From the NCBI GenBank assembly GCA_964373795.1, contig CAYJVY010000002.1:84207-116206 (forward strand): a stretch of DNA of 32,000 nucleotides, in the 5' to 3' direction. The position numbers were made by a program, and so were the translations under genes. Within the stretch, counting starts at the first letter, position 1. Each line of letters opens with the position of its first letter. The notes beneath the pieces were generated by a model. That model was not told the DNA's origin and did no database searches. It worked only from the letters and a program-made list of their open reading frames with translations. Below are positions 1-31,774 of the stretch, in pieces. Source of the stretch: an uncultured archaeon (GTDB taxonomy: Archaea; Iainarchaeota; Iainarchaeia; Iainarchaeales; DATDZZ01).

Positions 1-3000
1 CTTCATGCAATAACTGTATTCCTTCATCGTATTTTCCTTGAGCTTCAAGTATTTCATACATATAAGCTCTAACTCCTATTTGTCTTTCATCTGTTTCTGG
101 AAGCAAGCTTAAAGCTTCATTAAGGTAATCCATTGCTAAATTATTTTTCCAACCTTCTTTAGCAATAATTCCTGCTTCAATTAAATAATGCACTAATTGT
201 TCTGGATTGCCTGAAAACCTTGCATGATGAAGCAAGTCTCCAATAACTTCTGCATAAACCTTGTCTTGTTCAAGGCCTGGTTCTACACTCATTACTTTGT
301 TTTCAAATACTTGTAAAGCTTTTTCATGCAATGGAGTTCTTTTTTCACCTTCATACATCATTGAATAAGCAACTTCTTGAGTTAAGTCATGAGCAAAAAT
401 GAAAGGCCTTTCACCGTTTTGAGAAGGCAATTGTTTAATTAATCCTAGTTCTTCAAGGAATACAAGGTTTCTATCCAAATAAGTTCTTTCACTTTCATCT
501 AAAAGTTCTTTCAAAACATTTGCATCAAACTCTCTTCCTAATGCACTTGCAGTTTGAATAGTTTTTTTAGCAGTTGCAAGAAGTCCATCAATTCTTTGAG
601 AAATTGTTGCTTGAATTGTTCCGGGAATTTTTTCCTCCATTTCTTTTAGTTTTACTAAATTAACCTTACACTCTTTTCCTTCTACTTGAATTATTTTTGT
701 ATCTCTTAAAAATCCAAGCATTTGTTCAATGAAATAAGGAACTCCTTTTGCTTTAGAAATATGCGGCACTACTTTTTCAGGAATTTCTATTACTCCTAAA
801 AACTTTTTAGATAAATCTAGTGAAGTTGCTTCATCTAAATTACTTAAATCTAATCTGTTTCCTTCATCTAAAAATCTATGAGTAATTCCAGGTCTTTGAT
901 CTGCCCAAAAAATCACATTAAAGCCTTGCAATTCATCAACTATTTTGGATAAAAAGTTTTCAATTCTTTTATCCATTACATCTCTGTCTTTAACTGCTTC
1001 ATCTTTTGCATAATGCAAGTCCTCTAAACCCAAAACCAATGGAGTTTTCAAAGACCTTGCTTTAACTAAATCAATCAAAGTTGATTGAATTAATTCTACT
1101 CTGGCTTTTGGATCAATGTCTTTTACTTCTTCTAATTCAAATCCTAGTTCATCTAAAACTATTTTAGTTCTCAAGTCAACTAATTTTTCATCCGAATATT
1201 CAGGAGAAATTGGTTCAGTTAAAAGTTCTTTTACTTGTCTTGAAACCTCTGCAATAGCTTCTTCTCTTGATTCTCTACCAGTTAATTTAAAAATATCTCT
1301 TAACCATCCATGCAAAATAGCTGTATTCTTGTCTTTTCCATAAATTGGAATGCTTGAAGTAATTGCATCAAAACCTTGTTCGCGAAGCCTTTTAATTGCT
1401 TCAAATCTAATTCTAGATTTTCCTAGTCCAGCATCTCCCACTACATTGAAAAACCTGTTCTTTCCTGAAACAGGTTGAGCAGTTTTTGCATTAATTAAGT
1501 GTTCTAAAACATGTTTTTCTACTTCACTTAATTCTTCGCTTCTTCCAACAAATTCTGTTGCTTTTTCTCCAAACAAAATATCTAACTTGTTTCTGAGAAC
1601 TTCTCTTTTAACAGTAAAAATATTGATTGGCGCTGAAACTCCTTTATATTTTCTTTGCCCTAATGCTTCAACTTCAAATTCTCCTCCTTTAATTGATCTT
1701 CTAACTCTATCAGAAATAAGAATTTCTCCTTCTCCTGCGCCTTGCATGAAACGAGCAGCAACATTTACTCTGTCTCCGCCTAAATCAGGTTTATTTCCAA
1801 ACCAAGTAATTCCAACTCTTCCAAAATTGATTCCAGAACCTAAACGCAGGTTAACTGTTTCTCCAAATCTTTTTCCAATTGCATTAATTGCTTTATCCAT
1901 TTCCAAAGACAATTGAGTTGCAAAATAAATATCTCTTTCAGTTACTCTATCAGCTCCAAAAGTAATAAAGGCTCCAGTAGCCCCCATTTTTTTAACAAAA
2001 GTTCCTCCACGCTCTGAAGTTAATTCCTCCATTTTACGAAAACACTCTTGCCTTAAAGCCTCTCTTCTAGCTGCAGGCAAACCTTGAACTTGTGAATCAA
2101 AATTTTTTATTGAAGTAAACAACATTGTTGCATGCTTTAATTCTTGTCTAGTAATTCCAAAAGCTGCATGAGCTAATTTCATTCTAACAGTTCCACCAGT
2201 TTTTCCTTTTTCAACAAATTCTCCGATTGGCTTGTCAGTTGCTTCAATCAAAAAATAATGCTTGTCTCCTCCACCCTTTGGATCTCGTAAAGTTATTTCT
2301 CTAAATTTTGCTCCCTCAAATTCATTTGAAAACCTTGCATTAACTAATATTTGCCCTGCTCTTGCAGCACTCTGCAATTTAATTGTATCCTGAATTTGAG
2401 GCCCTAAATGAGTTGAAATTGCGTCAAGTGAATCAATTTTTTTCAAGGTTGCTTCATCTACTTGAATTGCATTAATTCCACTTGAAACACTTAAATCATC
2501 GGTTAATCTTTCACTAATTACTCTGTTTTCTCTTCGCAGAGATTTACTGAATTCAGGTAAAGCTCCTTGAACTGAATACAATGTTTTCAATGCATCAGTC
2601 ATTGAATCAAATAAAGCATAAACAGCATCTCCTTCCCCTAAATAAAACACTCCATGATTTTTATCCACATGACCTAAAACCATTTCCTGAAATTTATTCT
2701 TAATAGTATCCAATTGCTCTACATGTTCTTCTCCAAATCTTTCAGACAAAGCAGTATAACCGGCTAAATCAACTTTAATTATTGCAAGATTAGCTTTTTC
2801 TGGAACCTCAAAAACTCTTTCCCTTGCCGGAGCCACGCCTTTAGGAATTCCTTTTCTTCTTGCCTCCTCTTCTTCTTCTCTTTCCTCAGCTGCAGCTTCT
2901 GCTCGTCTTCTAGCAGCATCTACTGCTTCCTCTTCTTCTGCAGCCCATTCAATAGGAGGAACTTTTTTTCCAGCAACTGCTTCTTCTCCAACAGGAGCTT

Positions 3001-4486
3001 CTCTTACAGGAGCTTCCACTGCTTCTCTTCTCACAGGCTTTGAAGGTTCTACAGAAGGCCTTTCAAATTCAAAATCTTTTTGCAATTCATTGAATGGCTT
3101 TCCAATTGCTTCTCCTAAAACCCTTAAACCATTTCCAAAATCATTTTCATTAAATAATTGTTGTAACACGCTTAGCTTTGAATTGAATTCAATTATTTCT
3201 CCAGTAGACCTAAGAGAAGAAGCCTTTCTCTCCAATGCATTGAAAACCTTTTCCCCAATGAAAACTCTTTCGCCTAGAGAAGTAGAAGAAAATCTTTCCC
3301 GCAATTCCTTTACTTGTTGAACAAATTGTTGAATAAAAGAATCCTTTCTTTTTTCAACCTCTAAAGAAATTGCTTTAAAATCTCTTTCAGTTAAAGAAAT
3401 TTCTCTTTCAACTTCTTTTCTCTTTAAACCAAATTTGTCTTTAAAAAACTTTTTAGTTAATTCAAAAACTTTACTTAAATGAGAAACTACTTTTTCGATT
3501 TTCTTTTTCTTCAAGCCAGCTCTTTTCAAACGCCATCTCCAAAACATTGTTCTAAGCTTTCCAAAAGCCCACCATTTTGCAGCCAAGGCTTTCTGTAATT
3601 TAATTTCAATTTTTAAAAGATTTAAAGAAAGCCTTTCAACCTTGTCTTGAGAATTCAGTAAATCTAATTCAGCTTTTAACACTTTTTCTTCTCTTAAAAC
3701 ATCTAAATCAATTTTTTCAGGCTGAAACTCTTCTCGCTTTTTTCTTTTCTCCTTTAATTCTTCAGCTTTTCTATTAAACTCTGCCAATTCGCTTGCAATA
3801 AATCTAGGTAAAGGTTTTACAATTTTTTTAGGAGAAACAATTTCATCCCTTAAACTAGGAGATTTTAAAGCAAGGCTTCCTTCAACTGCAGGCTGCTCTC
3901 TATGCACTTCAGGAGCTTCAACCCTTACTTCCCCCATGTCCTTAAATACATGTTTTGTAACCTTTGCGGGTTTAAACAAGGGTTCAGGACGTTTTCCTTC
4001 TCCAGGGACTTCTCTTTCTGGTTCTCGTCTTTCAGGCACTTCTCCATGCCCTAAAGGTTCAGATTTTTTAGGAGGTTCTCCAGCAGCAGCAAAAACCCTT
4101 AAACGATTAGTTCCCTCTGTCCATCGAAGATTTTTTGGAAGAGGAATTGCTCTTGCTTCTGCTCCAGTTGTTCCAAGCTTTAAAGCCCTTGCTTTTTGTT
4201 TTTCAGGCTTTAAAGGAGGCTTGCCTGTTCTAGCTTTTTGAATTTGAGATTCAACTTTTTCAAGAACTCTTTTTGCTTGTTCATGTTTTTGCTGCAAGCG
4301 ATTTAATTGAAGTCTAACACTTGTCTTTAAAGACTTTTTTGCTTGCAATTTTTTTCTCTGATTTAAAATTCTTTTCTTTAATTCTTCAACTTTTTTTCTG
4401 CGTTCCATTAATTCTTGAACACGTTTAGCATCTGCATATAAGTGAGAAATATTTGCTTTCCTCATACTCGAAGACCTTCTTAACAT
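1..4486 (-). CDS. Giant multidomain signalling protein with its start in the window and its 3' end off the left edge (at least 1495 aa visible). Order: coiled-coil/low-complexity N-region, two tandem class III nucleotidyl-cyclase homology domains, AAA_16/STAND-type P-loop NTPase, TPR-like C-terminal repeats.
   Basis: My translation of the minus strand from the ATG at 4486-4484 (MLRRSSSMRKANISHLYADAKR...) stays open to base 1. It is absent from the ORF track because no stop lies in the window. Motifs read: IIKVDLAGYTALSERFG and LGEGDAVYALF (cyclase domain 1, about 2794-2250); GGDRVNVAARF (domain 2, about 2133-1610); VVGDAGLGKSR Walker A (1438-1415); LVLGLEDLHYAKDEA; FIFAHDLTQEVAYSMM; then TPR-like helices up to the window edge. 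Confidence 0.8.
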   Translation of the reverse strand, partial: MLRRSSSMRKANISHLYADAKRVQELMERRKKVEELKKRILNQRKKLQAKKSLKTSVRLQLNRLQQKHEQAKRVLEKVESQIQKARTGKPPLKPEKQKARALKLGTTGAEARAIPLPKNLRWTEGTNRLRVFAAAGEPPKKSEPLGHGEVPERREPEREVPGEGKRPEPLFKPAKVTKHVFKDMGEVRVEAPEVHREQPAVEGSLALKSPSLRDEIVSPKKIVKPLPRFIASELAEFNRKAEELKEKRKKREEFQPEKIDLDVLREEKVLKAELDLLNSQDKVERLSLNLLKIEIKLQKALAAKWWAFGKLRTMFWRWRLKRAGLKKKKIEKVVSHLSKVFELTKKFFKDKFGLKRKEVEREISLTERDFKAISLEVEKRKDSFIQQFVQQVKELRERFSSTSLGERVFIGEKVFNALERKASSLRSTGEIIEFNSKLSVLQQLFNENDFGNGLRVLGEAIGKPFNELQKDFEFERPSVEPSKPVRREAVEAPVREAPVGEEAVAGKKVPPIEWAAEEEEAVDAARRRAEAAAEEREEEEEARRKGIPKGVAPARERVFEVPEKANLAIIKVDLAGYTALSERFGEEHVEQLDTIKNKFQEMVLGHVDKNHGVFYLGEGDAVYALFDSMTDALKTLYSVQGALPEFSKSLRRENRVISERLTDDLSVSSGINAIQVDEATLKKIDSLDAISTHLGPQIQDTIKLQSAARAGQILVNARFSNEFEGAKFREITLRDPKGGGDKHYFLIEATDKPIGEFVEKGKTGGTVRMKLAHAAFGITRQELKHATMLFTSIKNFDSQVQGLPAARREALRQECFRKMEELTSERGGTFVKKMGATGAFITFGADRVTERDIYFATQLSLEMDKAINAIGKRFGETVNLRLGSGINFGRVGITWFGNKPDLGGDRVNVAARFMQGAGEGEILISDRVRRSIKGGEFEVEALGQRKYKGVSAPINIFTVKREVLRNKLDILFGEKATEFVGRSEELSEVEKHVLEHLINAKTAQPVSGKNRFFNVVGDAGLGKSRIRFEAIKRLREQGFDAITSSIPIYGKDKNTAILHGWLRDIFKLTGRESREEAIAEVSRQVKELLTEPISPEYSDEKLVDLRTKIVLDELGFELEEVKDIDPKARVELIQSTLIDLVKARSLKTPLVLGLEDLHYAKDEAVKDRDVMDKRIENFLSKIVDELQGFNVIFWADQRPGITHRFLDEGNRLDLSNLDEATSLDLSKKFLGVIEIPEKVVPHISKAKGVPYFIEQMLGFLRDTKIIQVEGKECKVNLVKLKEMEEKIPGTIQATISQRIDGLLATAKKTIQTASALGREFDANVLKELLDESERTYLDRNLVFLEELGLIKQLPSQNGERPFIFAHDLTQEVAYSMMYEGEKRTPLHEKALQVFENKVMSVEPGLEQDKVYAEVIGDLLHHARFSGNPEQLVHYLIEAGIIAKEGWKNNLAMDYLNEALSLLPETDERQIGVRAYMYEILEAQGKYDEGIQLLHE

Positions 4487-5282: not shown

Positions 5283-5356
5283 GGGTGTATAGCTCAGCCT
5301 GGTAGAGCAACGGTCTTATACACCGTGCGTCGGCGGTTCAAATCCGCCTACGCCCA
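5283..5356 (+). tRNA. tRNA-Ile with genomically encoded anticodon TAT (UAU, reads AUA); no encoded CCA.
   Basis: Hand-folded cloverleaf. Acceptor GGGTGTA/TACGCCC (one G-T pair); D arm GCTC-AGCCTGGTA-GAGC; anticodon arm ACGGT-CTTATAC-ACCGT (anticodon TAT, A37); variable loop GCGTC; T arm GGCGG-TTCAAAT-CCGCC; discriminator A. It is GC-rich against the AT-rich flanks. Confidence 0.9.
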
Positions 5357-5477
5357 TAAGCCTTTCTTTAAAAAAGAAAGCCTTGGGAAAGAAAAGGTTG
5401 GCAAAAAGAATTTGTGAAAAAAAATTGAATTTTAGGGATTTAAATTGAAGCCAAGAATTAAGCCTAGAAAAAAAAGA

Positions 5478-6578
5478 ATGCTTGTTAAGGGAGCAGTAAT
5501 TGGCGCGCTAGCTTTAGGAGCTGTTGCAGGAGTAAAAATTCGGGGAAACGTATTGCATGAAAGAGCTGTTGCAGCAATTTCAAAAGCTTCAAGTGAAGCA
5601 AAAGAATTAATTGATAGAGTAAGAATATTGGAAAATGTTTTTGACAAGCCTTCAGAAGAACAAGTGCGAAAAGCTTTAGCATTAAAGTTTGATTTTCATA
5701 GAAGAATTATAGATGCTAGAGCTGCTTTAAGTGAAGCAAGAAAAAGAGCTGCTGCTTTGAAAACAGGAAAAGAAAAAGCATTACAAGAAATTAAAGCACT
5801 TGAAGATACTTTAAGAGAACTTGAAACAGGTTTTACTATAATGGGAAGAGTTCCATTAATAAATGAAAGAGCAATGCAGCACATGGAAAAAATTGCCGAA
5901 GCATTGGAAGCAGAACATAAAAAATTATATGAAGGCTTTAGTAACACAAATTCAGAAATGGGAGGAGTATTAATTTATGATACTGAAAGAAATGCTTTTA
6001 ATTTTCAATTAGTTCACGATAAAACTGAAATGCAAATAAAAGCAGGTTTCAAGGAAATAGAGCAAGGAAATTTCACTAACATTAATGGATTAAAACAACG
6101 ACTTCAAAAGGCTTACTCTGATAGACCTGAAATTTATGAAAACAGAGAGGACGGCTTAAATTATTTAAGTGAATTAAATGATAAAAAAAAAGTTTTAGAA
6201 AAAGAAATTGGCAGGCTTCCAGGAAACTCTAGTGAAAGACAAAGGCTAACTCAAGAACTTGTTTCCTTAACTCAAGAAATTTTGAGGGCAAGAAATTTAT
6301 TGTTTTCAACAATTTCAAAAGATTTAGAGCAATACTATTTTTCTTTAGGAGCCATGCACGAATATTATTTAGATAATTCTCTTTTCAGTTATTCTCCTAA
6401 ACAAGTGTTATTGGCATTTCATTCTCATCCAAAAGGAGGCAGAGCAGGAGAAAGAGACATTAATAATTGTTTTACTTATGGCCCTCAACTAGTTATAAGA
6501 ATTTTGCCTAAGAGAATTGAGTTTCAGGTTTTCGTGAAAGGAAGAGAAGTACTTTATAAGGGATATAACATTCAATAA
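5478..6578 (+). CDS. Membrane-anchored coiled-coil protein with a possible degenerate JAB/MPN-like C-terminal motif.
   Basis: The track ORF is 5445..6578 with a TTG start; the first ATG is at 5478. It has an N-terminal hydrophobic helix (GAVIGALALGAVAGV), a long Lys/Glu-rich helical region, and C-terminal AFHSHPKGGRAGERD resembling HxHP...D. The motif spacing is not canonical. Confidence 0.55.
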   Translation: MLVKGAVIGALALGAVAGVKIRGNVLHERAVAAISKASSEAKELIDRVRILENVFDKPSEEQVRKALALKFDFHRRIIDARAALSEARKRAAALKTGKEKALQEIKALEDTLRELETGFTIMGRVPLINERAMQHMEKIAEALEAEHKKLYEGFSNTNSEMGGVLIYDTERNAFNFQLVHDKTEMQIKAGFKEIEQGNFTNINGLKQRLQKAYSDRPEIYENREDGLNYLSELNDKKKVLEKEIGRLPGNSSERQRLTQELVSLTQEILRARNLLFSTISKDLEQYYFSLGAMHEYYLDNSLFSYSPKQVLLAFHSHPKGGRAGERDINNCFTYGPQLVIRILPKRIEFQVFVKGREVLYKGYNIQ

Positions 6579-11809: not shown

Positions 11810-13387
11810 ATGGATTTAATTGTTAAAGGATTAAGTTTAAGCATTGGAAAACAAGAAATTTTCATTGACGAAAGTTTTGGAATCAAGGATGGTGCAAAGG
11901 TTGGAATAATTGGCAGAAACGGAGTTGGAAAAACAACTTTGTTGAAAACAATTATGGGAAACATTGATTATAATGGCACAATAACTTGTCAAGGCAGAAT
12001 TGCTTATTTTGCACAACATATTGATGTTGACATTAATTTGACTGTTTTAGAAGAATTAAACAAAGGCTTTGATTCAAAAGCAATTGAAGAAGAACTAAAA
12101 AGCATTGAAAAACAAATGGTTGATCCAAAAATCAATGAAAACTTGGAAAAAATAACAAAAATTACTGAAAGATATTCTGAACTGCAAGCAAGACTACAAG
12201 AAGAAACAGAATACAAATACTCAAACAAAGTCCAAGAAGTTTTAAAGACTTTAAGAATTGATAATTCTTTTGCCAGGAAAAAAGTATCAGAGTTAAGCAC
12301 TGGACAAAAAGCAATTCTTTCTTTGGCAAAAATTTTTTGCTCTAAATGCGACATACTTTTATTGGATGAACCAACAAACCATTTGGATTTTGAAAGACTT
12401 GGCATTTTAGAAGAATATATTTCAAGATTTAAAGGAACTATATTAATTATAACACATGACAGATTTTTGTTGGACAAAGTTGCTGACACTATTTTAAAAA
12501 TTGAAAACGGCCACATAATAAAATTCCCAGGAAATTATTCTGCTTATGTCAAGCAAAGAAAAATGTTATTCGAAGCACAATTACGTTCATTCGAAAACGA
12601 AGAAAATTATTTAAGAATTCAAAGAGATAAAATTGCTCGAATTGGAAAAAGCCCTGCAAAAGTAAAACAAGGACAATACAGGGAAAGGCTTTTGGAAAAA
12701 AGAGAAAAAATTGACAAACCAGACATGGATAAATCAGACTTCAAAGTGCATTTTAGTTCCAAAGAAATAAAGTCTCCAATAGTTTTAACTTTAAAAGAAT
12801 TAACTATAGGATATACTAAACCAATTCTTGAAAAAATTAATTTAACAATTGGTTTAGGTAACAGAATTGTAATTGTAGGCGAAAACGGATCAGGAAAAAC
12901 AACTCTGCTTAAAGCAATTGAAGGCCGGATTGCACCTCTTTCAGGCGAAATAATTTTTGCACACGAAACACAAATAGGATATGCAGATCAAGACTTAAAA
13001 GAATTAAATTATGAAAACACAGTTTATGATGAAATCAACAATGAATGCCAAGACTTGCCAACAACCAGAGCAAATCTTTCAATGATTGGATTCAGAAAAG
13101 ACGAAGAAGTGGAAAAAAAAGTTTCATCTTTAAGCATGGGAGAAAAATCCAGACTAAATTTATTGAAAGTTTTATTGCATAAACCAAATTTTTTGCTTTT
13201 AGATGAACCAACAAATCATTTAGATATTGATGCAAGAGAAATAATTGAAGAAGCTTTCCTTAATTATAATGGCGCAATTTTGGCTGTCTCACATGACAGG
13301 TATTTTATCAAAAAAATTGCAGACAGAATTATAAAAATAGAAAACAAAACATTAAAAGAAATGATTAGAAAAAACACTTTCAGTTAA
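11810..13387 (+). CDS. ABC-F family ATPase (two ABC cassettes, no TM domain, charged inter-domain linker).
   Basis: Walker A motifs GRNGVGKTT and GENGSGKTT. Signature variants LSTGQK and LSMGEK. Walker B LLLDEPTNHLD occurs twice. An Arg/Lys-rich linker lies between the cassettes (QRKMLFEAQLRSFENEENYLRIQRDKIARIGKSPAKVKQGQYRERLLEKR). Confidence 0.85.
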   Translation: MDLIVKGLSLSIGKQEIFIDESFGIKDGAKVGIIGRNGVGKTTLLKTIMGNIDYNGTITCQGRIAYFAQHIDVDINLTVLEELNKGFDSKAIEEELKSIEKQMVDPKINENLEKITKITERYSELQARLQEETEYKYSNKVQEVLKTLRIDNSFARKKVSELSTGQKAILSLAKIFCSKCDILLLDEPTNHLDFERLGILEEYISRFKGTILIITHDRFLLDKVADTILKIENGHIIKFPGNYSAYVKQRKMLFEAQLRSFENEENYLRIQRDKIARIGKSPAKVKQGQYRERLLEKREKIDKPDMDKSDFKVHFSSKEIKSPIVLTLKELTIGYTKPILEKINLTIGLGNRIVIVGENGSGKTTLLKAIEGRIAPLSGEIIFAHETQIGYADQDLKELNYENTVYDEINNECQDLPTTRANLSMIGFRKDEEVEKKVSSLSMGEKSRLNLLKVLLHKPNFLLLDEPTNHLDIDAREIIEEAFLNYNGAILAVSHDRYFIKKIADRIIKIENKTLKEMIRKNTFS

Positions 13388-15315: not shown

Positions 15316-16302
15316 TCAGTCAACAAAAGCGCCAGCAACTAATAAAGGAAACAAAATAGTTGTATCACCTACAACTTTCACTGTTTCTGCGCCTGCGGAA
15401 ATCTTGCCCCAACTCTTTGCTTCTTCTGGTTCAGCTCCAGAATCAGAGCCATCAAATTCAGAAGCAGTATTCAAGTAAACAGCATATTTTGCTCCTTCAC
15501 GATACATGTTTGCATTGCAAAGAGTGTGTTTTACTACTCCAGAACCAAGAATTAATAACCCTGTTTCATTTGCATCTAAAACCATTTCAACTAATTTATG
15601 ATGATCCATTGCTTGATCTATTTTCAATTCTTGAGAAATATTGTAATTAAAGAAATAAACATTGTCTCCAATTGCTCCATCCATGAATGCAGGGCAAAAA
15701 ACAGGAATTCCATTCTTTTGAGCCCAAAAATAAATTGATTCTTCATTATTAATTTGGTTACTCATTTCATTAATTATTTCTGAAGGAGAAAAAATTTTTT
15801 TCTCTTTACGTTGGCGTTCAAGAAATTGTTTTAAAATTGGTTGAAAGAATTCTTCAAACCAAACATACCTATCATTTGGAACAAAAATGTTTCCAATTCT
15901 GTTCACTCCTTTTTCTCTAAGCTTTACTCCATCTGCTCTGAAATCTCCTTGAAGGAAAGCGAATTTGGTTTTAATGAAGTCTTCTTCAATGCCTCCAGTA
16001 GTTGTTACAAGGCAGTCAACTAATTTGTTTTGAACTAAGTAACGAATTATTTCGCGGTTGCCGGAAGAAACTTGATTTGAAGTGAAACCTAAAAAAATTG
16101 TTACTTTTTCTTTACGCATTTTTTTAATTATTTCAACTGCTTTTCCTAAATTAGAGGCCTGAAAACCTGCGTCTTTAAATGAATTCAAAAATTTTTTGAA
16201 TTCCAAGCCTTGATCAAAGTCATATCCTTTAATTGAGGTTCCTTCAAATTTCGAGCTTTTTTTAAAAATGCTTTTCTTTGCATCTTCAAAGGTTTTCTTC
16301 AT
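15316..16302 (-). CDS. dys: Deoxyhypusine synthase.
   Basis: 328 aa. Blocks read: GFTSNQVSSGNREIIRYLVQNKLVDCLVTTTGGIEEDFIK, LILGSGVVKH, and the catalytic-lysine context EEAKSWGKI. Confidence 0.9.
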   Translation of the reverse strand: MKKTFEDAKKSIFKKSSKFEGTSIKGYDFDQGLEFKKFLNSFKDAGFQASNLGKAVEIIKKMRKEKVTIFLGFTSNQVSSGNREIIRYLVQNKLVDCLVTTTGGIEEDFIKTKFAFLQGDFRADGVKLREKGVNRIGNIFVPNDRYVWFEEFFQPILKQFLERQRKEKKIFSPSEIINEMSNQINNEESIYFWAQKNGIPVFCPAFMDGAIGDNVYFFNYNISQELKIDQAMDHHKLVEMVLDANETGLLILGSGVVKHTLCNANMYREGAKYAVYLNTASEFDGSDSGAEPEEAKSWGKISAGAETVKVVGDTTILFPLLVAGAFVD

Positions 16303-16602: not shown

Positions 16603-17538
16603 ATGGATTTAGGAAAAATGAAAAACGCTTTAGGAATGCTTTCACATGTAGCAGTATTAATTGCTTTACTGCTTGTACTACTTGGAGTGCTTACTTGGAC
16701 TGGAATAATTAGATGCAGTGTTATTCCTACTTGGTGTGATTTGTATGAAATGGTTGTAGGCGAGCCAAAAATATTAATTGTTTACGGAGATGATGGATTA
16801 GGGGATCCATTAAAATTACAACAAGTTTTTGAAGACAGAGAAGTATTAGGAAAAAGAGTTGATGCAAAGCATTTCAATTTCATTAGTGAAAATAATTTAA
16901 AAGAATACAATTTAGTAATAGTTGAACGCGCTAAAACCTTGTCAACAAAAAAATTAGAAGACTTGCTAAGCTATGCAAACGCAGGAGGAAAAAGATTAAT
17001 TTGGACAGCAGATAGTGGAACTGCTTTAACTGCTCAAGACATTAAAGACGATTTATATTTATATGAAGACGAAGCATTTGGAAAAGGCAAGCCACATGAA
17101 AAAATTGGGGCATGGGCTAGAAAAAACAAGGAAGGAAAAATATTGAATTTAGAAAACTTTATTTCAGTTCATTATATAGGAAATTATTGCAAGTTAACTA
17201 ACTGCATTACTCCTAATTCAAAATCCGGAAAACTAGTTGCAACTGATTCAAGTCATCCACTGGTTTTTGCTTTACGTTCAGACTTGGATTACTATGGAGA
17301 TTTTACTGTAGTAGAAGAAGTGAAAGGAGTTGGAACAAACATTATTTTAAGCTTGGATGCAGGAAAACCAATTCCAATAAAAGAAGATGAAACTAAAAGA
17401 ATTGTTCCATTAATTGTAACATCTGGAACGCTTACAGAAAACATAATGTATTATGCTTTTCCATTAGAACAAGCCCTTGAAAACGAAAACAAGTATCCTT
17501 CATTAATTCAAAACATTTACAAAACAAGTTTTAGGTAA
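16603..17538 (+). CDS. Membrane-anchored protein, paralog 1, with a possible GATase1/ThuA-like fold.
   Basis: 311-aa ORF with an N-terminal TM. It shares blocks with the next gene: EPK.LIV.G ... EYNLVIV ... GGKRLIWTADSGT. Confidence 0.6.
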   Translation: MDLGKMKNALGMLSHVAVLIALLLVLLGVLTWTGIIRCSVIPTWCDLYEMVVGEPKILIVYGDDGLGDPLKLQQVFEDREVLGKRVDAKHFNFISENNLKEYNLVIVERAKTLSTKKLEDLLSYANAGGKRLIWTADSGTALTAQDIKDDLYLYEDEAFGKGKPHEKIGAWARKNKEGKILNLENFISVHYIGNYCKLTNCITPNSKSGKLVATDSSHPLVFALRSDLDYYGDFTVVEEVKGVGTNIILSLDAGKPIPIKEDETKRIVPLIVTSGTLTENIMYYAFPLEQALENENKYPSLIQNIYKTSFR

Positions 17539-17652
17539 AAAATCACGTAAGATTTAAATAGGTGAACGAACTTTACTACAACAAAACTATTATAAATAAA
17601 AGAGTGAATTAAATTAATATAAGTCAAACAAAAAATGGAAGGTGAAGAATAA

Positions 17653-18567
17653 ATGGCTTACCCTGAAGGCGGAGATGCTGGAACTGAACCATTGCCTAGT
17701 GGCGGAGGATATGATTACGGGAACTACGGAGGAGAAGATCTTAAAACAAAGTTATTGAAAAACTTTGAAGGATTTATTCCACTAATTTTAATTATCATTA
17801 TTGGATTCTTTTTACTTTCAAGACTAAATATTTTAACTCCTGAAATGCCTTTAATTGGTCCAATAGTTGCAATTGCTGGCGGTCAAGGAGACGAGCCAAG
17901 AGAAATGCTTATAATTGGAAAATCAACTCCTTTAACTTTAAATTTATTAAATCAAAACAGAAAACTAGTAAGATATGACATGCGGACAGCAGGCGAATTA
18001 GATCGAAACCCTAAAGAAGTTTTAGCTCAATATAACATGGTTTTATTTGATCAATCAACTGAAAACGATAAAACAATTCCATTCGAGGTAGCAGAAGCAT
18101 TAAATGAATGGGTTAAAAAAGGCGGAAAACTATTAATTGTTCAAAACTCTGGAACTCAGAGAAGAGGAGCATTTGATGTAATTGGCTGGGAAGCAAGCTT
18201 TGGAGCAAAATTTGTTCCAGTTAGCTGTGAACCAGGAGCAGATAATCAACCAAGATGCTTGAAATCAATTGGAGTAGCAAGAGGAAAAATTATTGCAGCA
18301 AAAAGAAATCACAGAGTAATGCAAGGAATTGAAATTGCTCCAGCAGCTCCAGAACAATATTATGCATTAGAATTATTTGATGTAGGAGTAGAAGGAGGAG
18401 CACAAGAACTTGCATACTTTGAAACCTTTCCAGACAAAAAAAGATTCACTGCAATAGTTGAAGCAAAATCCCCAATATCAATTGGATTAGGAAAAGTATT
18501 ATACTTCAACTATGATTTAGGAAAATCTCCAGGAATATTTGAAAACACTTTAAGGTATTTAAAGTAA
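17653..18567 (+). CDS. Membrane-anchored protein, paralog 2, with a Gly/Tyr-rich N-terminal tail.
   Basis: 304-aa ORF. GGTGA lies upstream of the ATG. It has a TM helix and shares blocks with paralog 1: EPREMLIIG ... QYNMVLF ... GGKLLIVQNSGT. Confidence 0.6.
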   Translation: MAYPEGGDAGTEPLPSGGGYDYGNYGGEDLKTKLLKNFEGFIPLILIIIIGFFLLSRLNILTPEMPLIGPIVAIAGGQGDEPREMLIIGKSTPLTLNLLNQNRKLVRYDMRTAGELDRNPKEVLAQYNMVLFDQSTENDKTIPFEVAEALNEWVKKGGKLLIVQNSGTQRRGAFDVIGWEASFGAKFVPVSCEPGADNQPRCLKSIGVARGKIIAAKRNHRVMQGIEIAPAAPEQYYALELFDVGVEGGAQELAYFETFPDKKRFTAIVEAKSPISIGLGKVLYFNYDLGKSPGIFENTLRYLK

Positions 18568-22468: not shown

Positions 22469-22891
22469 ATGAAAATTTACTTGGATTCGAATGTGCTTAT
22501 TTCTGTGTTGCGAGAAGAGATTGGCAGAAATTTAAGATTACTATCTGGTGAAGCAGAAGAGTTTCTTAATTACGCAAGAGACAATAAAATTGTAATTGTT
22601 TTGTCGGATTTGTTTTTCATTGAATTAGAAGATGTAATATCTTACAACAAACAAAGTGTCATAGAGTTCATTAAAGAAAAAGGAATTATTTTTGAAGAAG
22701 TTAAAATGTTACAAGATGACATAGAAAATGCAAAAAAATTTGAGAAAATAGGCGTTCATTCACCCGACTCAAAACATATAGCAATAGCAATTAGAATAAA
22801 GTGTGATTGTATTGTGACATTTAATTTGAAGGATTTTGAAAAAGCAGCAAAATTTATTCAAATAATTGAACCAAAATATTTCAAACCTTGA
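22469..22891 (+). CDS. vapC: PIN-domain (VapC-like) ribonuclease toxin.
   Basis: 140 aa. MKIYLDSNVLISVL at the N-terminus, acidic residues in LSDLFFIELE and HSPDSKHIAIA, and C-terminal TFNLKDF. Confidence 0.75.
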   Translation: MKIYLDSNVLISVLREEIGRNLRLLSGEAEEFLNYARDNKIVIVLSDLFFIELEDVISYNKQSVIEFIKEKGIIFEEVKMLQDDIENAKKFEKIGVHSPDSKHIAIAIRIKCDCIVTFNLKDFEKAAKFIQIIEPKYFKP

Positions 22892-23271: not shown

Positions 23272-23320
23272 TAATTTTTTGAATGAAAACTTTTATTAAT
23301 TGTTAAACTGTATTATTTTC

Positions 23321-24931
23321 ATGCCTATTTCACTTAAAGAAGAATCTTCAGTTATTGGAAGAACTGCTAAAGATTTGAAAAAATATGGAGAAAAAGGAAC
23401 TGCTTATTTAGGGAAAACAGTTCTATCAGCTGGAGATAATCCAACTCTTGGAAGAAAAGTTTTAGTTGATATTTCCAAACCCCATTTAGTTTTAATTTGC
23501 GGCAAGAGAGGAGGGGGAAAATGTCTTCACGAAGACACTTTAATAACTCTTGACAACGGAGAAGAAATTCCAATCAAAGAACTTGAAAAAAATAATAATA
23601 AAATAATTGCTTTAAATGATAAACTAAAATTAATTCATACGTATAAAACAGAATTTTACAAACGAGAAGTGAATAAATTATTGCAAATAAAGCTGCGAAC
23701 TGGAAAAGAAATAAAGTTAACTCCTGAACACCCTATTTTTACTATTGATGGATGGATTCAAACAGAGGAGTTAAATGTCGGCAGTAGAATTGCAACTCCT
23801 AGAAAAATTAATTTTATTGGAAATGAAGTCCTGGAAGAGTTTAAAGTAGTGCTGCTTGCATACTTAATTGCAGAGGGACATTTAGGAAATAAAAAAGTAT
23901 TGTTTTCAAATCAAGATGAGAAAATTATTCAAGAATTTAAAGAATGTATTAAAAAATTTGATGAAAACCTTGTTGTAAAAAAACACGGCAAAGACTGTTT
24001 TACTGTTGTACAAAAATCCATTAAAAGAAAAATTGATTACGTAGTAAGAAGTGATGGAAGGTTTGCAAAAGGAAGTAAATTTAATAAAAAAAGCGTTACT
24101 GAATGGCTTGAAGCATTTGAACTCTATAACAAGAAATCAGAAAAAAAATTTATTCCAAAAGAAATATTCAAATTAACTAAAAAAGGATTAGCACTATTTT
24201 TGAATAGATATTTTAGCTGTGATGGAACAATTTATTTTGATTCAAATACAAAAACTTACAGAATTAGTGTTTCTTCTGCTTCTGAAATGCTTGCAAGGCA
24301 ATTGCAAAGCCTGCTTTTAAGATTTGAAATGGTTGGAGTTTTAAGAAATAAAAAAAGTAAGTTAAATGGAAAAGAGTTTAAAAGCTTTGAATTAGAGTTA
24401 AAAGGAAAAAATGTTGAAACCTTCATTAAAGAAATTGGATTCTATGGAAAAAAAGAAATTAAACAAAATGAAGCCTTAAAAAAAATAGAAAACATTAAAA
24501 GAAATACAAACATTGACACAATTCCAAGAGAGATATGGAAAACTTACAGGCCAAAAAGTTGGACTGAAATTGGTAAAAAAATTGGCTATGCAATTCCAAA
24601 GAGTTTAAGGGAAAGCATTTATTATTCTCCTTCAAGGCAAAAATTATTGCAAATAGCTAAAGCAGATCATCAAGAAAAAATAGTTGAACTAGCTGAATCA
24701 GATATTTTTTGGGATGAAGTAATTGAAATAAAAGAACTTGAAGGAAAATTTAATGTATATGATATTGTTGTTCCGGAATTCCATAACTTTGTTGCAAATA
24801 ATATAATTGTTCACAATTCTTATTCAATGTCAGTTGTAATGGAGGAATTTTGTTTACAGCCTGCAGAGATTAGGCAAAGAATTTCTGTTATAACAATTGA
24901 TACTGGGGGAATTTTTTGGACTTTAAAATAA
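23321..24931 (+). CDS. HerA/FtsK-superfamily (DUF87-like) P-loop ATPase, N-terminal part. The Walker A motif is interrupted by an intein and the ORF ends at an in-frame TAA.
   Basis: The N-extein ends ...HLVLICGKRGGGK and the C-extein resumes SYSMSVVMEEF..., so splicing would restore GKRGGGKS. The track start at 23300 is TTG; the first ATG is at 23321. Confidence 0.75.
   Translation: MPISLKEESSVIGRTAKDLKKYGEKGTAYLGKTVLSAGDNPTLGRKVLVDISKPHLVLICGKRGGGKCLHEDTLITLDNGEEIPIKELEKNNNKIIALNDKLKLIHTYKTEFYKREVNKLLQIKLRTGKEIKLTPEHPIFTIDGWIQTEELNVGSRIATPRKINFIGNEVLEEFKVVLLAYLIAEGHLGNKKVLFSNQDEKIIQEFKECIKKFDENLVVKKHGKDCFTVVQKSIKRKIDYVVRSDGRFAKGSKFNKKSVTEWLEAFELYNKKSEKKFIPKEIFKLTKKGLALFLNRYFSCDGTIYFDSNTKTYRISVSSASEMLARQLQSLLLRFEMVGVLRNKKSKLNGKEFKSFELELKGKNVETFIKEIGFYGKKEIKQNEALKKIENIKRNTNIDTIPREIWKTYRPKSWTEIGKKIGYAIPKSLRESIYYSPSRQKLLQIAKADHQEKIVELAESDIFWDEVIEIKELEGKFNVYDIVVPEFHNFVANNIIVHNSYSMSVVMEEFCLQPAEIRQRISVITIDTGGIFWTLK
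23522..24817 (+). mobile_element. Intein of 432 aa with a LAGLIDADG homing-endonuclease domain, inserted in the ATPase P-loop.
   Basis: Cys1 context CLHEDTLITLDNG. Block B is LTPEHPIFT. LAGLIDADG-like blocks are LLAYLIAEGHLG and LFLNRYFSCDGTI. The C-terminus reads VYDIVVPEFHNFVANNIIVHN, followed by the +1 Ser. Confidence 0.85.
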
Positions 24932-24991: not shown

Positions 24992-25921
24992 ATGAAAAAT
25001 GTTCGAGTATTAGTTCCAAAAGGAAAGCTTTCATTTTATAAAGAAAAAGGCTTGCCAGTTGACGGAGCATTTAGTTTGAATATTTCTGAATTAAATGTAA
25101 CTGAATGGATGGCTTTATTTCAATTAACTTGGAGTGACCCAGAAGCAGTGTTAATTACAAGAGTAATTGAAAAACTGCAAGAAGAAAAAAAAACTGGATA
25201 CGGGTTTGAAGAAATAGTTAAAGAAATTAAAGCTGATTCAGAGTCACAGGATTTAACTAAAAAAGCTTTAGCTAACAGGTTTAAAGTAGCTGATTCTTGG
25301 GGGTTGTTTGAAAAATATGGTACTCCAATTAAAGAAATTGCTACTCCTGGAATGCTTTCAATAATTGATGTTTCATCGTATAGTCAATCAATTGGAACTG
25401 AAGGAACCAGAGACATTGTAGTTGCAATGCTTGGAAAAAAATTATTCGAAGAAAGAATGTTGTATAGAAAAGAAGAAGAAATTAATTTAATTAAAGGCAA
25501 GCAAAGAATTAGTGAAATGCCTATTGTTTGGATGTTAATAGATGAAGCGCATATGTTCATGCCAAAAGATAGGGAAAGCCTTGCATTAAAAGTGTTGCTT
25601 GAATGGGTTAGAGTAGGCCGTCAACCAGGATTAAGCTTGCTTTTAGCAACCCAGATTCCAAACAAATTACATCCAGATGCAATTTCTCAATGCGATTTAT
25701 TTATTTCTCATAGAATGACTGCTCAACCAGATATTCAAGCAGTTTCACAGTTAAGGCCAAGCTATTTACATCAAAACTTTGACAAATACTATGAAGAAAT
25801 GCCTAAAGAAAAAGGTTATGCATTAATTTTAGATGACAACACTGAAAGAATTTGGATGATTAGAATCAGGCCAAGGCTTACATGGGATGGAGGAAAAACA
25901 GCTTCAGTATTTAAAGAGTAA
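24992..25921 (+). CDS. HerA/DUF87-like ATPase, C-terminal part (Walker B and downstream motifs), in the same frame as 23321..24931.
   Basis: VWMLIDEAHMFMP is the Walker B motif; GRQPGLSLLLATQIPNKL and CDLFISHRM match HerA-family blocks. The frame is open from 24932, directly after the TAA at 24929-24931. GGAGGT at 24972-24977 lies 14 nt upstream of the ATG. Confidence 0.75.
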   Translation: MKNVRVLVPKGKLSFYKEKGLPVDGAFSLNISELNVTEWMALFQLTWSDPEAVLITRVIEKLQEEKKTGYGFEEIVKEIKADSESQDLTKKALANRFKVADSWGLFEKYGTPIKEIATPGMLSIIDVSSYSQSIGTEGTRDIVVAMLGKKLFEERMLYRKEEEINLIKGKQRISEMPIVWMLIDEAHMFMPKDRESLALKVLLEWVRVGRQPGLSLLLATQIPNKLHPDAISQCDLFISHRMTAQPDIQAVSQLRPSYLHQNFDKYYEEMPKEKGYALILDDNTERIWMIRIRPRLTWDGGKTASVFKE

Positions 25922-26455: not shown

Positions 26456-27451
26456 ATGGCTAAAAAAATTCCAGTAGTAGCAGTAGTTGTTCCAACTACT
26501 GGAGAATTTCCTCAAATAACTGATGCAATTAGAAATGCAGGAAAAGCATTGAAAAGTAAAGGAGTTAAACCATTGTTTATAGTTTCATCCAATAAAAAGT
26601 TATCCGGGGAAAGAATTAAAGCAATTCAAGGCTTAGGAGAGGAAGTGAATTTCTTAGTTATTGAAAATGGAAGAATTGGAAATCAAATGATTGCAGGATT
26701 TGATTTTGCTGTAAACAAATCAGATGTAATTACAATGCTGCCAGATGATTTTGTTTTTGAAGCTCAAGGAATTTATTCAACTGTAAAACCTGTTTTAAAC
26801 GGAAGATATGAATTTGTTAATAGTTGCTGGCATTATAAAGATTCTAGATTTGCTAAAAGCTTTCCAGAACCTCAATACTTGAATGAAGTAACTGTTTCAA
26901 GGCTTGTAACCTTGGCAAATCCCGCTTTTCATCCACGAGATTTAAGATTAATGCCTGCACTAAGACAAGCAGAAAAAGAAGGAAAACTTTTTCAAACATA
27001 TACTGGATTGCTTTCACTTAAATCAAGTGAATGGAGTAAAGTAAAGCAAGCAATGCAAACAGTTTTACAAGGAAAAGAAGAAGAAATAAATGTATGGGCT
27101 TTTGAAATTGCTTTAATGCTTTCAGCTTTTCATGCTAGAAAAAAAGTTGGAGCAGTGCCAGCTAAAAGGCTTTTTGAACACGAATGGCCTTCAGAACAAT
27201 CAATTCAAGCATTAAGAGATAAAAGGCTTTTACAGTTTAGAGTTGCAACTGAAGTAATTAAAACTTTTTTAGAACGAACTAATCAAGCTCATAAAATTCC
27301 TTTACTTGAAGAAATTGTTCGACAAACAATTCGCAGGATTCAAAAAGCCTCTCATCACACTAAAGAAGAAGTATGGAAAAGATTAGAGAGAATGAGAAAA
27401 CAAAAAAAGTTTAGAAAACAATTTCCTAAAATAAGAAAAAAATTAAGATAA
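26456..27451 (+). CDS. GT-A-fold (family-2-like) glycosyltransferase-like protein with a strongly basic C-terminal tail.
   Basis: 331 aa. VVAVVVPTTGE, ENGRIGNQMIAGFDFA and MLPDDF (DxD-like) fit a GT-A layout. The tail is RMRKQKKFRKQFPKIRKKLR. The assignment rests on pattern only. Confidence 0.5.
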   Translation: MAKKIPVVAVVVPTTGEFPQITDAIRNAGKALKSKGVKPLFIVSSNKKLSGERIKAIQGLGEEVNFLVIENGRIGNQMIAGFDFAVNKSDVITMLPDDFVFEAQGIYSTVKPVLNGRYEFVNSCWHYKDSRFAKSFPEPQYLNEVTVSRLVTLANPAFHPRDLRLMPALRQAEKEGKLFQTYTGLLSLKSSEWSKVKQAMQTVLQGKEEEINVWAFEIALMLSAFHARKKVGAVPAKRLFEHEWPSEQSIQALRDKRLLQFRVATEVIKTFLERTNQAHKIPLLEEIVRQTIRRIQKASHHTKEEVWKRLERMRKQKKFRKQFPKIRKKLR

Positions 27452-29084: not shown

Positions 29085-29783
29085 TTAGAATTCTTTTAGT
29101 TTTGCATCTAATAGTTTTCCTAAGCGATCAGTTTTTTTAATTAAATCAGGAGAAGACTTAATTGATAATTCTTTCAAGTTTTTGAATTCAATTCTTGTAT
29201 GAGGGGAATCAATTACAAATTCTTGAGGTTTTGCAGTTCTTAAAACATAGTGTAATACTTTTGAAAGCTTTGAAGTTGAAACCTTTAAATAACTGGGAGA
29301 AATTTTTTCTGTTCCAGTTTTTTCAGCTGTTTCTTTTAAGTCTAATACTCCAATCATTTTTGGGCCGAAAAAAACTTCTTTGGTTTTTTGGTCTTTTAAA
29401 ACTGCAATTAAAAAATCTAAAGCATTTTCTTCTTTTTGAAATACATAAGTTGCTTCAGTTCTAAAAGAATCTAAAAACAAGTCAGCTCTAAAACTTGGTT
29501 CTTCAAATCTTTTAATTGTTTTCTTTAAGTTACTTAAATTTGATTCAAGCACTTTAAAATTTGAAATAATGGATGAGTTAGAAATTTCTTTTTTAAAAGT
29601 GTTTGAAAGAGTTGGATGTGATTCAGTTAATTCTTCTAATAAAGAAGTTTTTTCTTGAATGTCTTTTAATGAATTACTTAACTCATTTAAATCATGCAAT
29701 AAAGAATTAGTTTTATATAATTTTTTTTCTAAATCAGTTAATGAATGAGTTAAAACTATTTGTTCTTTTTTCTTTTCCTCCAA
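29085..29783 (-). CDS. Hypothetical coiled-coil protein; TTG start.
   Basis: 232-aa ORF. GGGGGT lies 6 nt upstream of the TTG at 29783. The N-terminal half is Ser/Leu/Glu-rich and helical. No family recognised. Confidence 0.55.
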   Translation of the reverse strand: MEEKKKEQIVLTHSLTDLEKKLYKTNSLLHDLNELSNSLKDIQEKTSLLEELTESHPTLSNTFKKEISNSSIISNFKVLESNLSNLKKTIKRFEEPSFRADLFLDSFRTEATYVFQKEENALDFLIAVLKDQKTKEVFFGPKMIGVLDLKETAEKTGTEKISPSYLKVSTSKLSKVLHYVLRTAKPQEFVIDSPHTRIEFKNLKELSIKSSPDLIKKTDRLGKLLDAKLKEF

Positions 29784-29876
29784 AATACAACCCCCTTTAA
29801 CCCCATTATATTGTATCTTTTCTTTATAAAAATCTTTTCATTAACTAATCCTTAATAAAAGTGTTGAGCGAAAAAA

Positions 29877-30332
29877 ATGGATAAAGAAAAAAAATTGCTT
29901 TACTTAGTTGCGTTTGCATTTATTGTATTGCTTGTATTAAGTGTTTTACAATTAATTGGGCAAAGAGTTCCAAATGAATTCACTGAAGCATTTCTTGAAA
30001 GAAATTCCTTGCCTGAAAAAGTAAAAGCAGGAGAAGAATTTACTATTAACATGTTTTTAACAAACAATCAAATTCAAGACTTAAACTTTGAATTCTTTGT
30101 AGTAGAAGGAGAGCTAGCAAATGATGTAAATACATTAATAGTAAGAGAAACAGGCTTAATTAATGCAAACATTATTTTGAAAGGAAAAGAAAAAATCAAG
30201 AAAAAAGAAATGAAAAAGATTCCTTTAAAATTAAAAATAACTTCACCTGGAGAAAAAAAGGTTGAAGTAAAATTCAAGCATGAAAAAGAATATTACTTTC
30301 ATTCACTGTATTTTTGGACATTAGTTGAATGA
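29877..30332 (+). CDS. Membrane-anchored small protein with a probable beta-sandwich ectodomain, function unknown.
   Basis: 151-aa ORF with an N-terminal TM (LLYLVAFAFIVLLVLSVLQLI). Its 3' end overlaps the convergent gene by 34 nt. Confidence 0.5.
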   Translation: MDKEKKLLYLVAFAFIVLLVLSVLQLIGQRVPNEFTEAFLERNSLPEKVKAGEEFTINMFLTNNQIQDLNFEFFVVEGELANDVNTLIVRETGLINANIILKGKEKIKKKEMKKIPLKLKITSPGEKKVEVKFKHEKEYYFHSLYFWTLVE

Positions 30333-31774
30333 GTTTCTAAAACCCTTGTTTCAACATCTCCACATAAAATTCCGCCATAACCTATTACTCCAAAAAAACA
30401 ATTAGCATAATAATTCAAACTGTAAACTTTGTTGAATGCAGGAACAAATTTATAGTTTGGAGATCTAAAAGCATCGTCTTCAAAGTTTAAAATTAAAAAT
30501 TGTGCATTAGAGTCTTTTAAAAACATGTAATCGCTTGAATTTAAATCTTTTTTTTGCAAAAACTGTAATCCTTGCACTGAAAACTTGTCAGTGAAAGCCT
30601 CTAAAGGCAATCCAGTTAGAGTTTTATTTCCTAGATTAGAGTAAAGTCCTAAGCCTTCATTAAATGCTGGTTCAGCTAAAATCATTCCTTGAACGTTTTG
30701 AGATTCAAGCCAGTTAATTGCTCTTAAATCGTTTAAAGTGATTTTTGCAAAACTAGAAGTAAAATCAACATTTATTACAGAGAAAAATAAAAACAATCCA
30801 AAAAAAACAATTAATCCAAAAAAAACCCAGAACTTGTTAAACAATTCATTTTTTTTAAACAATACAAGCAATGAAACTATTCCTACACTTAAAAATTTTG
30901 GTTGCTCCCAAGGTCTAAGCAATCCACTTAAAAAAAAAGCAATTGAAGCAAAAAAAGAAATCAATGAAAAAATAAACCAATAAATTTGAGTTCTAGTGCG
31001 CAAATCAAATAAAGATAAAATTATTAGAGGCAAAACGAAAACAATGATTTGAAAAGCCATTACAGGCAAGTAATTAGAAAAATTAATTGCAACAAAGTCT
31101 GCTCCAGAAATTGTTCCAACTGCATTTAATTTAACTCCATTAAATACAAAAAGCCATACAAGTAATAGAACTGCAAAAAAGGGAATGAAGGTTTTCCAAA
31201 ACTTTTTTTCTTTAAAAAACGCAATTAAAAAAGGCAAGGAAAACATTATAAAAGCCAAGTAATTCCAAAACAAATTCAAGGAAAGCAAAAGAGAAGCAAT
31301 TCTCCATTTATCTTTTAAAGCTAAAACTAAGATTAATGGAAAAACAAAGAAAACAAAAACTTCAGGGCTTTGAGAAGCAGCAGAAATAATTGTAGGCAAA
31401 AAAGTAATTAACAGAGCTCCAACTAGTGATTCAAGTACTCCAACAAATCTTCTAAACAAGAGAAAAAAAGTAACAGCATTTAAGGAACTTAAAAAAGGCA
31501 AGAAAAATAATGCCAAAAGCCAAGAAGAAAAACCTGTAAAAACACTCATTGAAGCAATAATTGAATGATAGAAAGGAGGATAAGTATAAGGAATTAAAGG
31601 ATTATCTGGATCAAATTCAGGAATAAAACCTGTTACAGTAATGTTTTGTGCAAGTTTAATATGATAATTTGAATCATAATACAAAGGCATTTGAAACATT
31701 AAAATAGGAAGAAAGCGTAAAATAAGTGAAATAAAAAAAATCAATAACAAAATTAATTTTTCAGTTTTATTCAT
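30299..31774 (-). CDS. Polytopic membrane protein, GT-C-fold glycosyltransferase-like (ArnT/PMT/STT3-like N-terminal pattern).
   Basis: 491 aa with 10 or more TM segments. Its first-loop motif, LYYDSNYHIKLAQNI...YPPFYH, resembles the GT-C acidic-loop pattern. No WWDYG motif is seen, so I do not call it AglB. Confidence 0.5.
   Translation of the reverse strand: MNKTEKLILLLIFFISLILRFLPILMFQMPLYYDSNYHIKLAQNITVTGFIPEFDPDNPLIPYTYPPFYHSIIASMSVFTGFSSWLLALFFLPFLSSLNAVTFFLLFRRFVGVLESLVGALLITFLPTIISAASQSPEVFVFFVFPLILVLALKDKWRIASLLLSLNLFWNYLAFIMFSLPFLIAFFKEKKFWKTFIPFFAVLLLVWLFVFNGVKLNAVGTISGADFVAINFSNYLPVMAFQIIVFVLPLIILSLFDLRTRTQIYWFIFSLISFFASIAFFLSGLLRPWEQPKFLSVGIVSLLVLFKKNELFNKFWVFFGLIVFFGLFLFFSVINVDFTSSFAKITLNDLRAINWLESQNVQGMILAEPAFNEGLGLYSNLGNKTLTGLPLEAFTDKFSVQGLQFLQKKDLNSSDYMFLKDSNAQFLILNFEDDAFRSPNYKFVPAFNKVYSLNYYANCFFGVIGYGGILCGDVETRVLETHSTNVQKYSE

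Follow-up and report, generated by a model that had tools for sequence, protein, structure and literature searches.

Can two cyclase homology domains (CHDs), neither of which has all the catalytic residues, make up one working nucleotidyl cyclase in an archaeon? The question is raised by a gene at the left edge of a 32,000-nt stretch of DNA, hereafter the window, from an uncultured archaeon of the Iainarchaeales (GenBank assembly GCA_964373795.1, contig CAYJVY010000002.1, positions 84,207–116,206). Cyclic AMP (cAMP) has been measured in archaea, where the enzymes that synthesize it are uncharacterized; annotated archaeal class IV "cyclases" proved to be phosphatases, and predictions of class III members in archaea are very few (PMC10249747, PMC8646023). 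Our analyses suggest that this gene probably specifies a pseudo-heterodimeric class III nucleotidyl cyclase located in the cytosol, the likeliest activity being that of an adenylyl cyclase, and that the enzyme follows soluble adenylyl cyclase (sAC) in both its logic and its domain order. The protein carries two CHDs of complementary degeneracy, followed by a STAND NTPase, and its complete composite active site makes it a concrete, testable candidate for the missing archaeal cAMP enzyme.

The gene occupies an uninterrupted minus-strand frame (4516 to 2) that continues past the window edge; as an earlier, sequence-only reading of this DNA had recognized, it is absent from the list of open reading frames (ORFs) because the frame leaves the window. 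There are two candidate start ATGs, at 4486 and 4465, which would give proteins of 1512 and 1505 aa, respectively; residues are numbered throughout from the ATG at 4486. An NCBI protein of 1505 aa from a 138.5-kb contig (P0001) is 100% identical to the gene product; it begins at the 4465 ATG, upstream of which there is a Shine-Dalgarno-like GAAGGT, and its C-terminus is LLHEAWIRLGGTVKELYAEEK, with 17 aa outside the window. Since only these 17 residues are off the window, there is no large hidden C-terminus, and the protein is not much larger than its visible part, contrary to what the sequence-only reading implied in calling for the recovery of a missing end. The GC content of the sequence is 0.28–0.37, around 32% overall, and an intact frame of 1,505 codons at such a composition argues for selection. 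A signalling protein of 1,512 residues is unexpected in a lineage with small genomes. Its parts, with the evidence used to delimit them, are the following:

2..4486, minus strand: coding sequence of the cyclase-STAND protein (aa 1–1495 of 1512; alternative start at 4465).
2837..4486, minus strand: N-terminal extension, aa 1–550 (composition, hydropathy).
2243..2806, minus strand: CHD1, aa 561–748, divergent C1-type class III cyclase domain (hhalign, CyaC 1wc0, phmmer, AlphaFold2).
2150..2236, minus strand: linker between both CHDs, aa 751–779, predicted to be disordered (AlphaFold2 pLDDT <50, model residues 201–229).
1601..2149, minus strand: CHD2, aa 780–962, C2-type class III cyclase domain (Pfam, alignment to CyaB 3r5g, hhalign, Foldseek).
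362..1555, minus strand: STAND NTPase, aa 978–1375, comprising nucleotide-binding and helical domains and a winged helix (AAA_16, AlphaFold2, Foldseek, conserved columns).
2..340, minus strand: C-terminal helices, aa 1383–1495 plus 17 aa off the window (helices 418–529 of the AlphaFold2 model).

CHD2 was identified with the Pfam profile Guanylate_cyc (PF00211), which matches aa 780–951 (E 3e-17; 63 bits, the gathering threshold being 21.9); likewise, hhalign gave a probability of 99.8% against canonical CHD profiles and Foldseek a TM of 0.85 with CyaB. The position of the first metal-binding Asp is occupied by S792 (2111–2113), within LFTSIKNF, and that of the second by A836 or T837 (1976–1981), in GATG 835–838, the choice depending on a one-residue gap. 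Conversely, alignments with CyaB and canonical profiles showed that CHD2 retains K832/K833 (1988–1993), N908 (1763–1765), R912 (1751–1753), and K946 (1649–1651). By ungapped count, D901 (1784–1786) falls seven residues before the transition-state Asn (Asn-7), the purine-specifying position, and in the AlphaFold2 model it is part of the strand spanning aa 899–903.

CHD1 is not seen by the standard profile, with no Pfam match for aa 551–775, and therefore the Pfam check proposed for both domains was positive for CHD2 only; standard domain annotation thus shows one cyclase domain and conceals the tandem complementary design. With CHD1 as a single sequence, matches in PDB were weak and ambiguous, to cyclases (E 0.03) and to GGDEF domains (E 0.045). 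An exhaustive phmmer search among 1.84 billion representatives retrieved 19 proteins besides CHD1 itself, 18 of them with Guanylate_cyc, and a two-sequence profile built with the only true relative among them (P0033, see below) aligned to Spirulina CyaC (1wc0) along the full length of CHD1 (E 4e-5). The 23 PDB matches of this profile were class III cyclases throughout, with no GGDEF protein among them; we therefore rejected the assignment of CHD1 as a GGDEF domain, which rested on the single-sequence hits with E 0.03–0.05. Additionally, hhalign comparisons to two independent canonical CHD alignments gave probabilities of 99.1% (E 1.4e-18) and 98.7% (E 4e-16). Taken from these profile comparisons, CHD1 is a true class III cyclase domain, in agreement with the proposal of two CHDs in one chain.

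The residues of CHD1 complement those of CHD2. Both metal-binding Asp residues are kept, D573 (2768–2770) in the DxxGYT loop, which preserves the DxxG[FY]T phosphate loop, and D620 (2627–2629), while the Lys position is occupied by L616. In alignments to CyaC and canonical profiles, GPQIQDTIKL corresponds to GDaVNvAaRL, which places Q699 (2390–2392) in the Asn position and K703 (2378–2380) in the Arg position; the same register is obtained by counting back from the next strand (GQILV in CHD1, GEILI in CHD2). The sequence-only reading had taken KLQSAAR for the Asn-x3-Arg motif, that is, Q705 and R709, but this register is six residues off and was discarded. With the register of Q699 and K703, the Arg from CHD1 is therefore also replaced, by Lys. 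The remaining residues named in that reading (D573, D620, S792 in LFTSIKNF, GATG 835–838, N908, and R912) were found at those positions.

As a result, the metal ligands come only from CHD1 (D573 and D620), and the partner residues only from CHD2: the purine-binding Lys, the candidate Asp (D901), the transition-state Asn and Arg, and the gamma-phosphate Lys. Because the residue sets are split, a full site exists only where CHD1 pairs with CHD2; to judge from the residues present, a homodimer of either domain could not be active. A complete set (two metal Asp, Lys, Asp, Asn, and Arg) is available at one CHD1-CHD2 interface, with D901 as its less certain member. The mapping to CHD profiles and solved cyclases thus agrees with the complementary degeneracy and the single composite C1/C2 site suggested from the sequence, and the same split is conserved in P0033 (MDO8627419.1), annotated as a partial adenylate/guanylate cyclase domain-containing protein from a Candidatus Diapherotrites archaeon and the only close relative found. 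This protein, which fills an entire contig of 2,161 bp, is 36% identical to ours and colinear with it over CHD1-CHD2-STAND; it conserves D573, D620, K833, the KPD motif, N908, R912, and K946, and restores none of the degenerate positions of CHD1 or CHD2. A metagenome scan added a bacterial sAC-like protein (L007) and no further archaeal members, and a scan of genome contigs yielded only distant bacterial single-CHD proteins.

The AlphaFold2 model of aa 551–965, based on a 23-row alignment, had a pLDDT of 77 and a pTM of 0.62, and both halves showed the secondary-structure pattern of CHDs. The top Foldseek matches of this tandem model were the two-domain cores of the membrane adenylyl cyclase AC9 and of sAC (E ~5e-16, 450–480 columns).

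The module following the CHDs is matched by Pfam AAA_16 with 27–31 bits, slightly below the cut-off of 32.6. Its AlphaFold2 model had a pLDDT of 87 and was matched by Foldseek to Apaf-1 (3sfz, E 5e-10; 1z6t, E 5e-9, TM 0.55), the STAND protein 6mfv, with tetratricopeptide repeats (TPRs), CED-4, and plant NB-ARC domains. The Walker A (GDAGLGKS, aa 1017–1024; 1415–1438) and Walker B (LVLGLEDLH, aa 1150–1158; 1013–1039) motifs are intact; together with R1198 and a GxP motif (aa 1248–1250), they coincide with conserved columns in an alignment of 32 sequences. The model indicates that aa 978–1375 are a STAND NTPase with an Apaf-1-like fold, as had been predicted. The TPRs predicted along with it did not hold up: after the winged helix there are only about six helices, of some 130 residues, in the AlphaFold2 model, and Pfam did not detect any TPR family, even at E 10. 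These C-terminal helices align to the start of the TPR region from L007, in a weak BLAST match (E 0.23), and on the model they could represent a minimal TPR-like sensor stub of about six helices. Pfam found no helix-turn-helix in the protein either, which ends 17 aa past the window.

At the other end, the N-terminal extension is rich in Lys, Glu, and Arg, with a Pro/Glu-rich stretch at approximately aa 100–235 and an acidic, Ala/Glu-rich linker at approximately aa 480–555, and from its composition alone it is probably helical or disordered. No transmembrane segment was apparent, the highest Kyte-Doolittle value for a 19-residue window being 0.92. Homologs of these 550 aa were not found in Pfam or PDB; a word-indexed search of protein databases was also empty, but its negatives are weak because it missed P0001 and P0033 even with their own sequences as the query.

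From these features we propose that CHD1 and CHD2 would pack head-to-tail, by means of the flexible linker of around 29 residues, to form one catalytic site that would convert ATP to 3′,5′-cAMP and pyrophosphate, whereas the second, pseudo-symmetric pocket would be dead and maybe regulatory. The STAND module would work as an ADP/ATP-dependent conformational or oligomerization switch gating this preformed catalytic core, and would receive its input from the short C-terminal helical stub, from the charged N-terminal extension of 550 residues, or from both.

Several observations weigh against this proposal. The packing of the two domains in the AlphaFold2 model is not the canonical head-to-tail one (TM of 0.34–0.40 to the sAC and AC9 cores, with an rmsd of 12–15 Å), so that the predicted head-to-tail dimer was recovered as regards the individual CHD folds and not as regards their arrangement. 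In CHD1, predicted helices with the sequence D-x3-LKKI-x2-LD (aa 676–694) in both archaeal proteins take the place of the beta4-beta5 arm, and no counterpart of the phosphate-binding Arg from the arm was seen. The identity of the purine-specifying residue is uncertain because the beta4-beta5 loop of CHD2 is four residues longer in P0033, which has a Gly at the Asn-7 count. Conservation could be evaluated in only two family members and is thus thin evidence, and no cAMP receptor or phosphodiesterase genes were found among the 30 ORFs scanned in the window.

The non-canonical geometry leaves room for a pairing between chains that would depend on oligomerization: CHD1 from one protomer would meet CHD2 from another upon assembly of the STAND modules, thereby switching the enzyme on. 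Inducer-dependent multimerization is the mode of action of STAND proteins (PMC4381067). The absence of a canonical packing of both domains from one chain in the model is compatible with this arrangement, and the closest relatives by BLAST score are single-CHD STAND-TPR cyclases, which are obligate interchain dimers. Nevertheless, a disordered linker of 29 residues would suffice for intramolecular pairing, and sAC and the membrane cyclases, which show the same complementary split and are the top fold matches, pair within one chain; we therefore consider the interchain site unlikely.

Quite unlikely, in turn, is that the protein is a catalytically dead pseudo-enzyme in which the CHDs would do no more than bind nucleotide or act as a scaffold within a STAND signalling hub. 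The divergence of CHD1 beyond Pfam detection, its remodelled dimer arm, the ambiguous position of the substrate Asp, and the lack of a cAMP-binding partner in the window would all fit with such a loss of activity, but all the residues of one site are conserved at 36% identity in the complementary pattern expected for an active enzyme, a pattern that random decay would not preserve. It is highly improbable that the protein is an antiviral sensor, joining an Avs-like STAND module to a Pycsar-like cyclase effector that would signal infection by a cyclic nucleotide alarm, a reading that goes further than the earlier hint at a defence role: fusions of STAND NTPases and effectors are common in defence, and some euryarchaea have pyrimidine cyclases related to class III (PMC10249747), but PADLOC models gave no match to the protein, its neighbours are housekeeping genes with no adjacent gene for an effector activated by cyclic nucleotides, and CHD2 retains the purine-type Lys.

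These neighbours are genes for tRNA-Ile(UAU), a Na+/H+ exchanger, isoleucyl-tRNA synthetase, an ABC-F ATPase, and deoxyhypusine synthase. The tRNA-Ile gene (5283–5356, plus strand; anticodon TAT), the only Rfam match in the window, lies on the other strand, around 800 bp upstream of the cyclase gene, and stands for an uncommon AUA decoding. The ABC-F-type double ABC ATPase (11810–13387, plus strand) has the ABC_tran_Xtn linker (E 2e-52) and here occurs in an archaeal genome; the ABC-F family is mainly bacterial and eukaryotic. The deoxyhypusine synthase gene (15316–16302, minus strand) adjoins a 57-aa Sec61-beta gene (1798–1971 in locus L005), and this segment is also present in the Logan assembly of run ERR3478686. 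Elsewhere in the window there is a PIN-domain protein similar to VapC toxins (22469–22891, plus strand; E 1e-7) and an intein with a LAGLIDADG endonuclease (23300–24931, plus strand; Pfam E 8e-29 and 4e-17), which sits exactly inside a P-loop (LICGKRGGGK|CLHEDT…HN|SYSM) and is followed by a C-extein of around 37 aa and then a stop; the 309-aa ORF at 24992–25921, without any Pfam match, may be the rest of the intein-bearing ATPase. Nine ORFs of 150–490 aa in the window have no significant Pfam match, including those at 5445–6578, 16603–18567, 24992–25921, 26456–27451, 29085–30332, and 30299–31774, which suggests a poorly characterized lineage. Taken together, the low GC content, the pairing of deoxyhypusine synthase with Sec61-beta, the intein, the ORFs lacking Pfam matches, and the Diapherotrites origin of P0033 point to an archaeal host, probably from the DPANN group.

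Among known systems, the nearest in architecture is sAC (ADCY10) with its bacterial relatives, rather than the Rv0386-type proteins that had been put forward as precedent. The literature describes full-length sAC as a C1 and a C2 domain joined to a predicted STAND P-loop domain (PMC12802110), and PMC11006738 (citing Kobayashi et al.) reports a bicarbonate-activated adenylyl cyclase related to sAC in Chloroflexus. L007, a bacterial protein of 1270 aa, has two Guanylate_cyc stretches, AAA_16, and many TPRs in Pfam, and its relatives P0052–P0060 are from Cloacimonadota; among solved structures, L007 is matched best by human sAC, colinear over both C1 and C2 (E 1e-21). Between the first metal Asp and the beginning of the TPRs, the archaeal protein and L007 are colinear (BLASTP E 1e-33, 24% identity). 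All of them share the order C1 (with only the metal Asp), C2 (with only the Lys, Asn, and Arg), STAND, and helical repeats; the layout of tandem CHDs plus STAND is therefore already known, and the novelty initially attributed to it was overstated. There are also differences. Proteins of the sAC type start directly with C1, whereas the archaeal protein has an N-terminal extension of 550 residues, and in place of the many TPRs from L007 it has about six C-terminal helices and no Pfam TPR. The Asn-7 position is a Thr in sAC (T405, class IIIb) and in L007, but D901 in the archaeal protein, which thus lacks the class IIIb signature. Likewise, K95 in C1 from sAC, four residues before the second metal Asp, which we take to be the bicarbonate-site Lys (the numbering coming partly from the alignment), corresponds to Leu616, and this feature is absent.

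The single-CHD cyclase-STAND-TPR proteins of the Rv0386/Rv1358/Rv2488c type are homologous over CHD2-STAND (26% identity along ~700 residues, E 7e-30 for P0002), and there is a partial match to the NCBIfam model TIGR03903 (TOMM kinase/cyclase core; E 3e-40, 138 bits against a cut-off of 706). Members of that type have a single complete CHD that must homodimerize and long arrays of TPRs, often together with a LuxR helix-turn-helix (PMC9552081); the archaeal protein, in contrast, combines two half-competent, complementary CHDs with hardly any TPR and lacks a helix-turn-helix. The membrane cyclases AC1–9 also split the catalytic residues complementarily over two CHDs in one chain. LFTSIKNF, which puts a Ser at the first metal position of CHD2, is much like the sequence of the mammalian membrane-cyclase C2 at this position. 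Unlike AC1–9, the archaeal protein lacks membrane domains, the coiled-coil transducer, and G-protein regulation, and has a STAND module instead.

On whether the resemblance to sAC reflects shared ancestry or convergence, the evidence from hhalign, BLAST, and neighbour-joining is weak or conflicting. In favour of a shared origin, CHD1 in hhalign comparisons scored 77–81% against C1 and 0.3% against C2, and CHD2 98% against C2 and 45–69% against C1. In around 80 of 100 bootstraps, a neighbour-joining tree of CHD2 plus NOD (585 columns) also put the archaeal pair together with the sAC-like clade from bacteria. Against a shared origin, the grouped taxa are on long branches, and their Lys/Ile/Asn-rich sequences point to AT-rich genomes; CHD2-STAND has 142 bits to the single-CHD STAND-TPR proteins against 120 to the sAC-like ones; and both CHDs score far better with ordinary single CHDs in hhalign, so that common descent of the tandem arrangement is only a possibility. 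P0037, a Lys/Ile/Asn-rich single-CHD STAND-TPR cyclase whose composition suggests a low-GC origin, is among the best matches of CHD1 outside the family (30% identity) and also joins the sAC-like clade in the tree; its placement may stem from an attraction by composition, or else P0037 may connect the single-CHD with the tandem-CHD forms. A possible, if doubtful, scenario is that DPANN archaea from the Diapherotrites lineage evolved a C1/C2 cyclase-STAND protein independently of sAC, by adding a CHD to a single-CHD ancestor followed by complementary loss, in which case it would be a genuine cAMP synthase with an N-terminal extension for localization or input, e.g., at a host-contact site. An independent origin of the architecture would make it another convergent case of pseudo-heterodimeric cyclases.

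What the STAND domain does in sAC is not yet understood (PMC12802110), and the archaeal protein could thus offer a simpler system for the control of a preformed cyclase core by STAND. With its CHD1 invisible to Pfam, its unique N-terminal extension, and its minimal sensor, this protein is a deeply divergent archaeal variant, and it may correspond, among prokaryotes, to full-length sAC, though its sensor region is much shorter.

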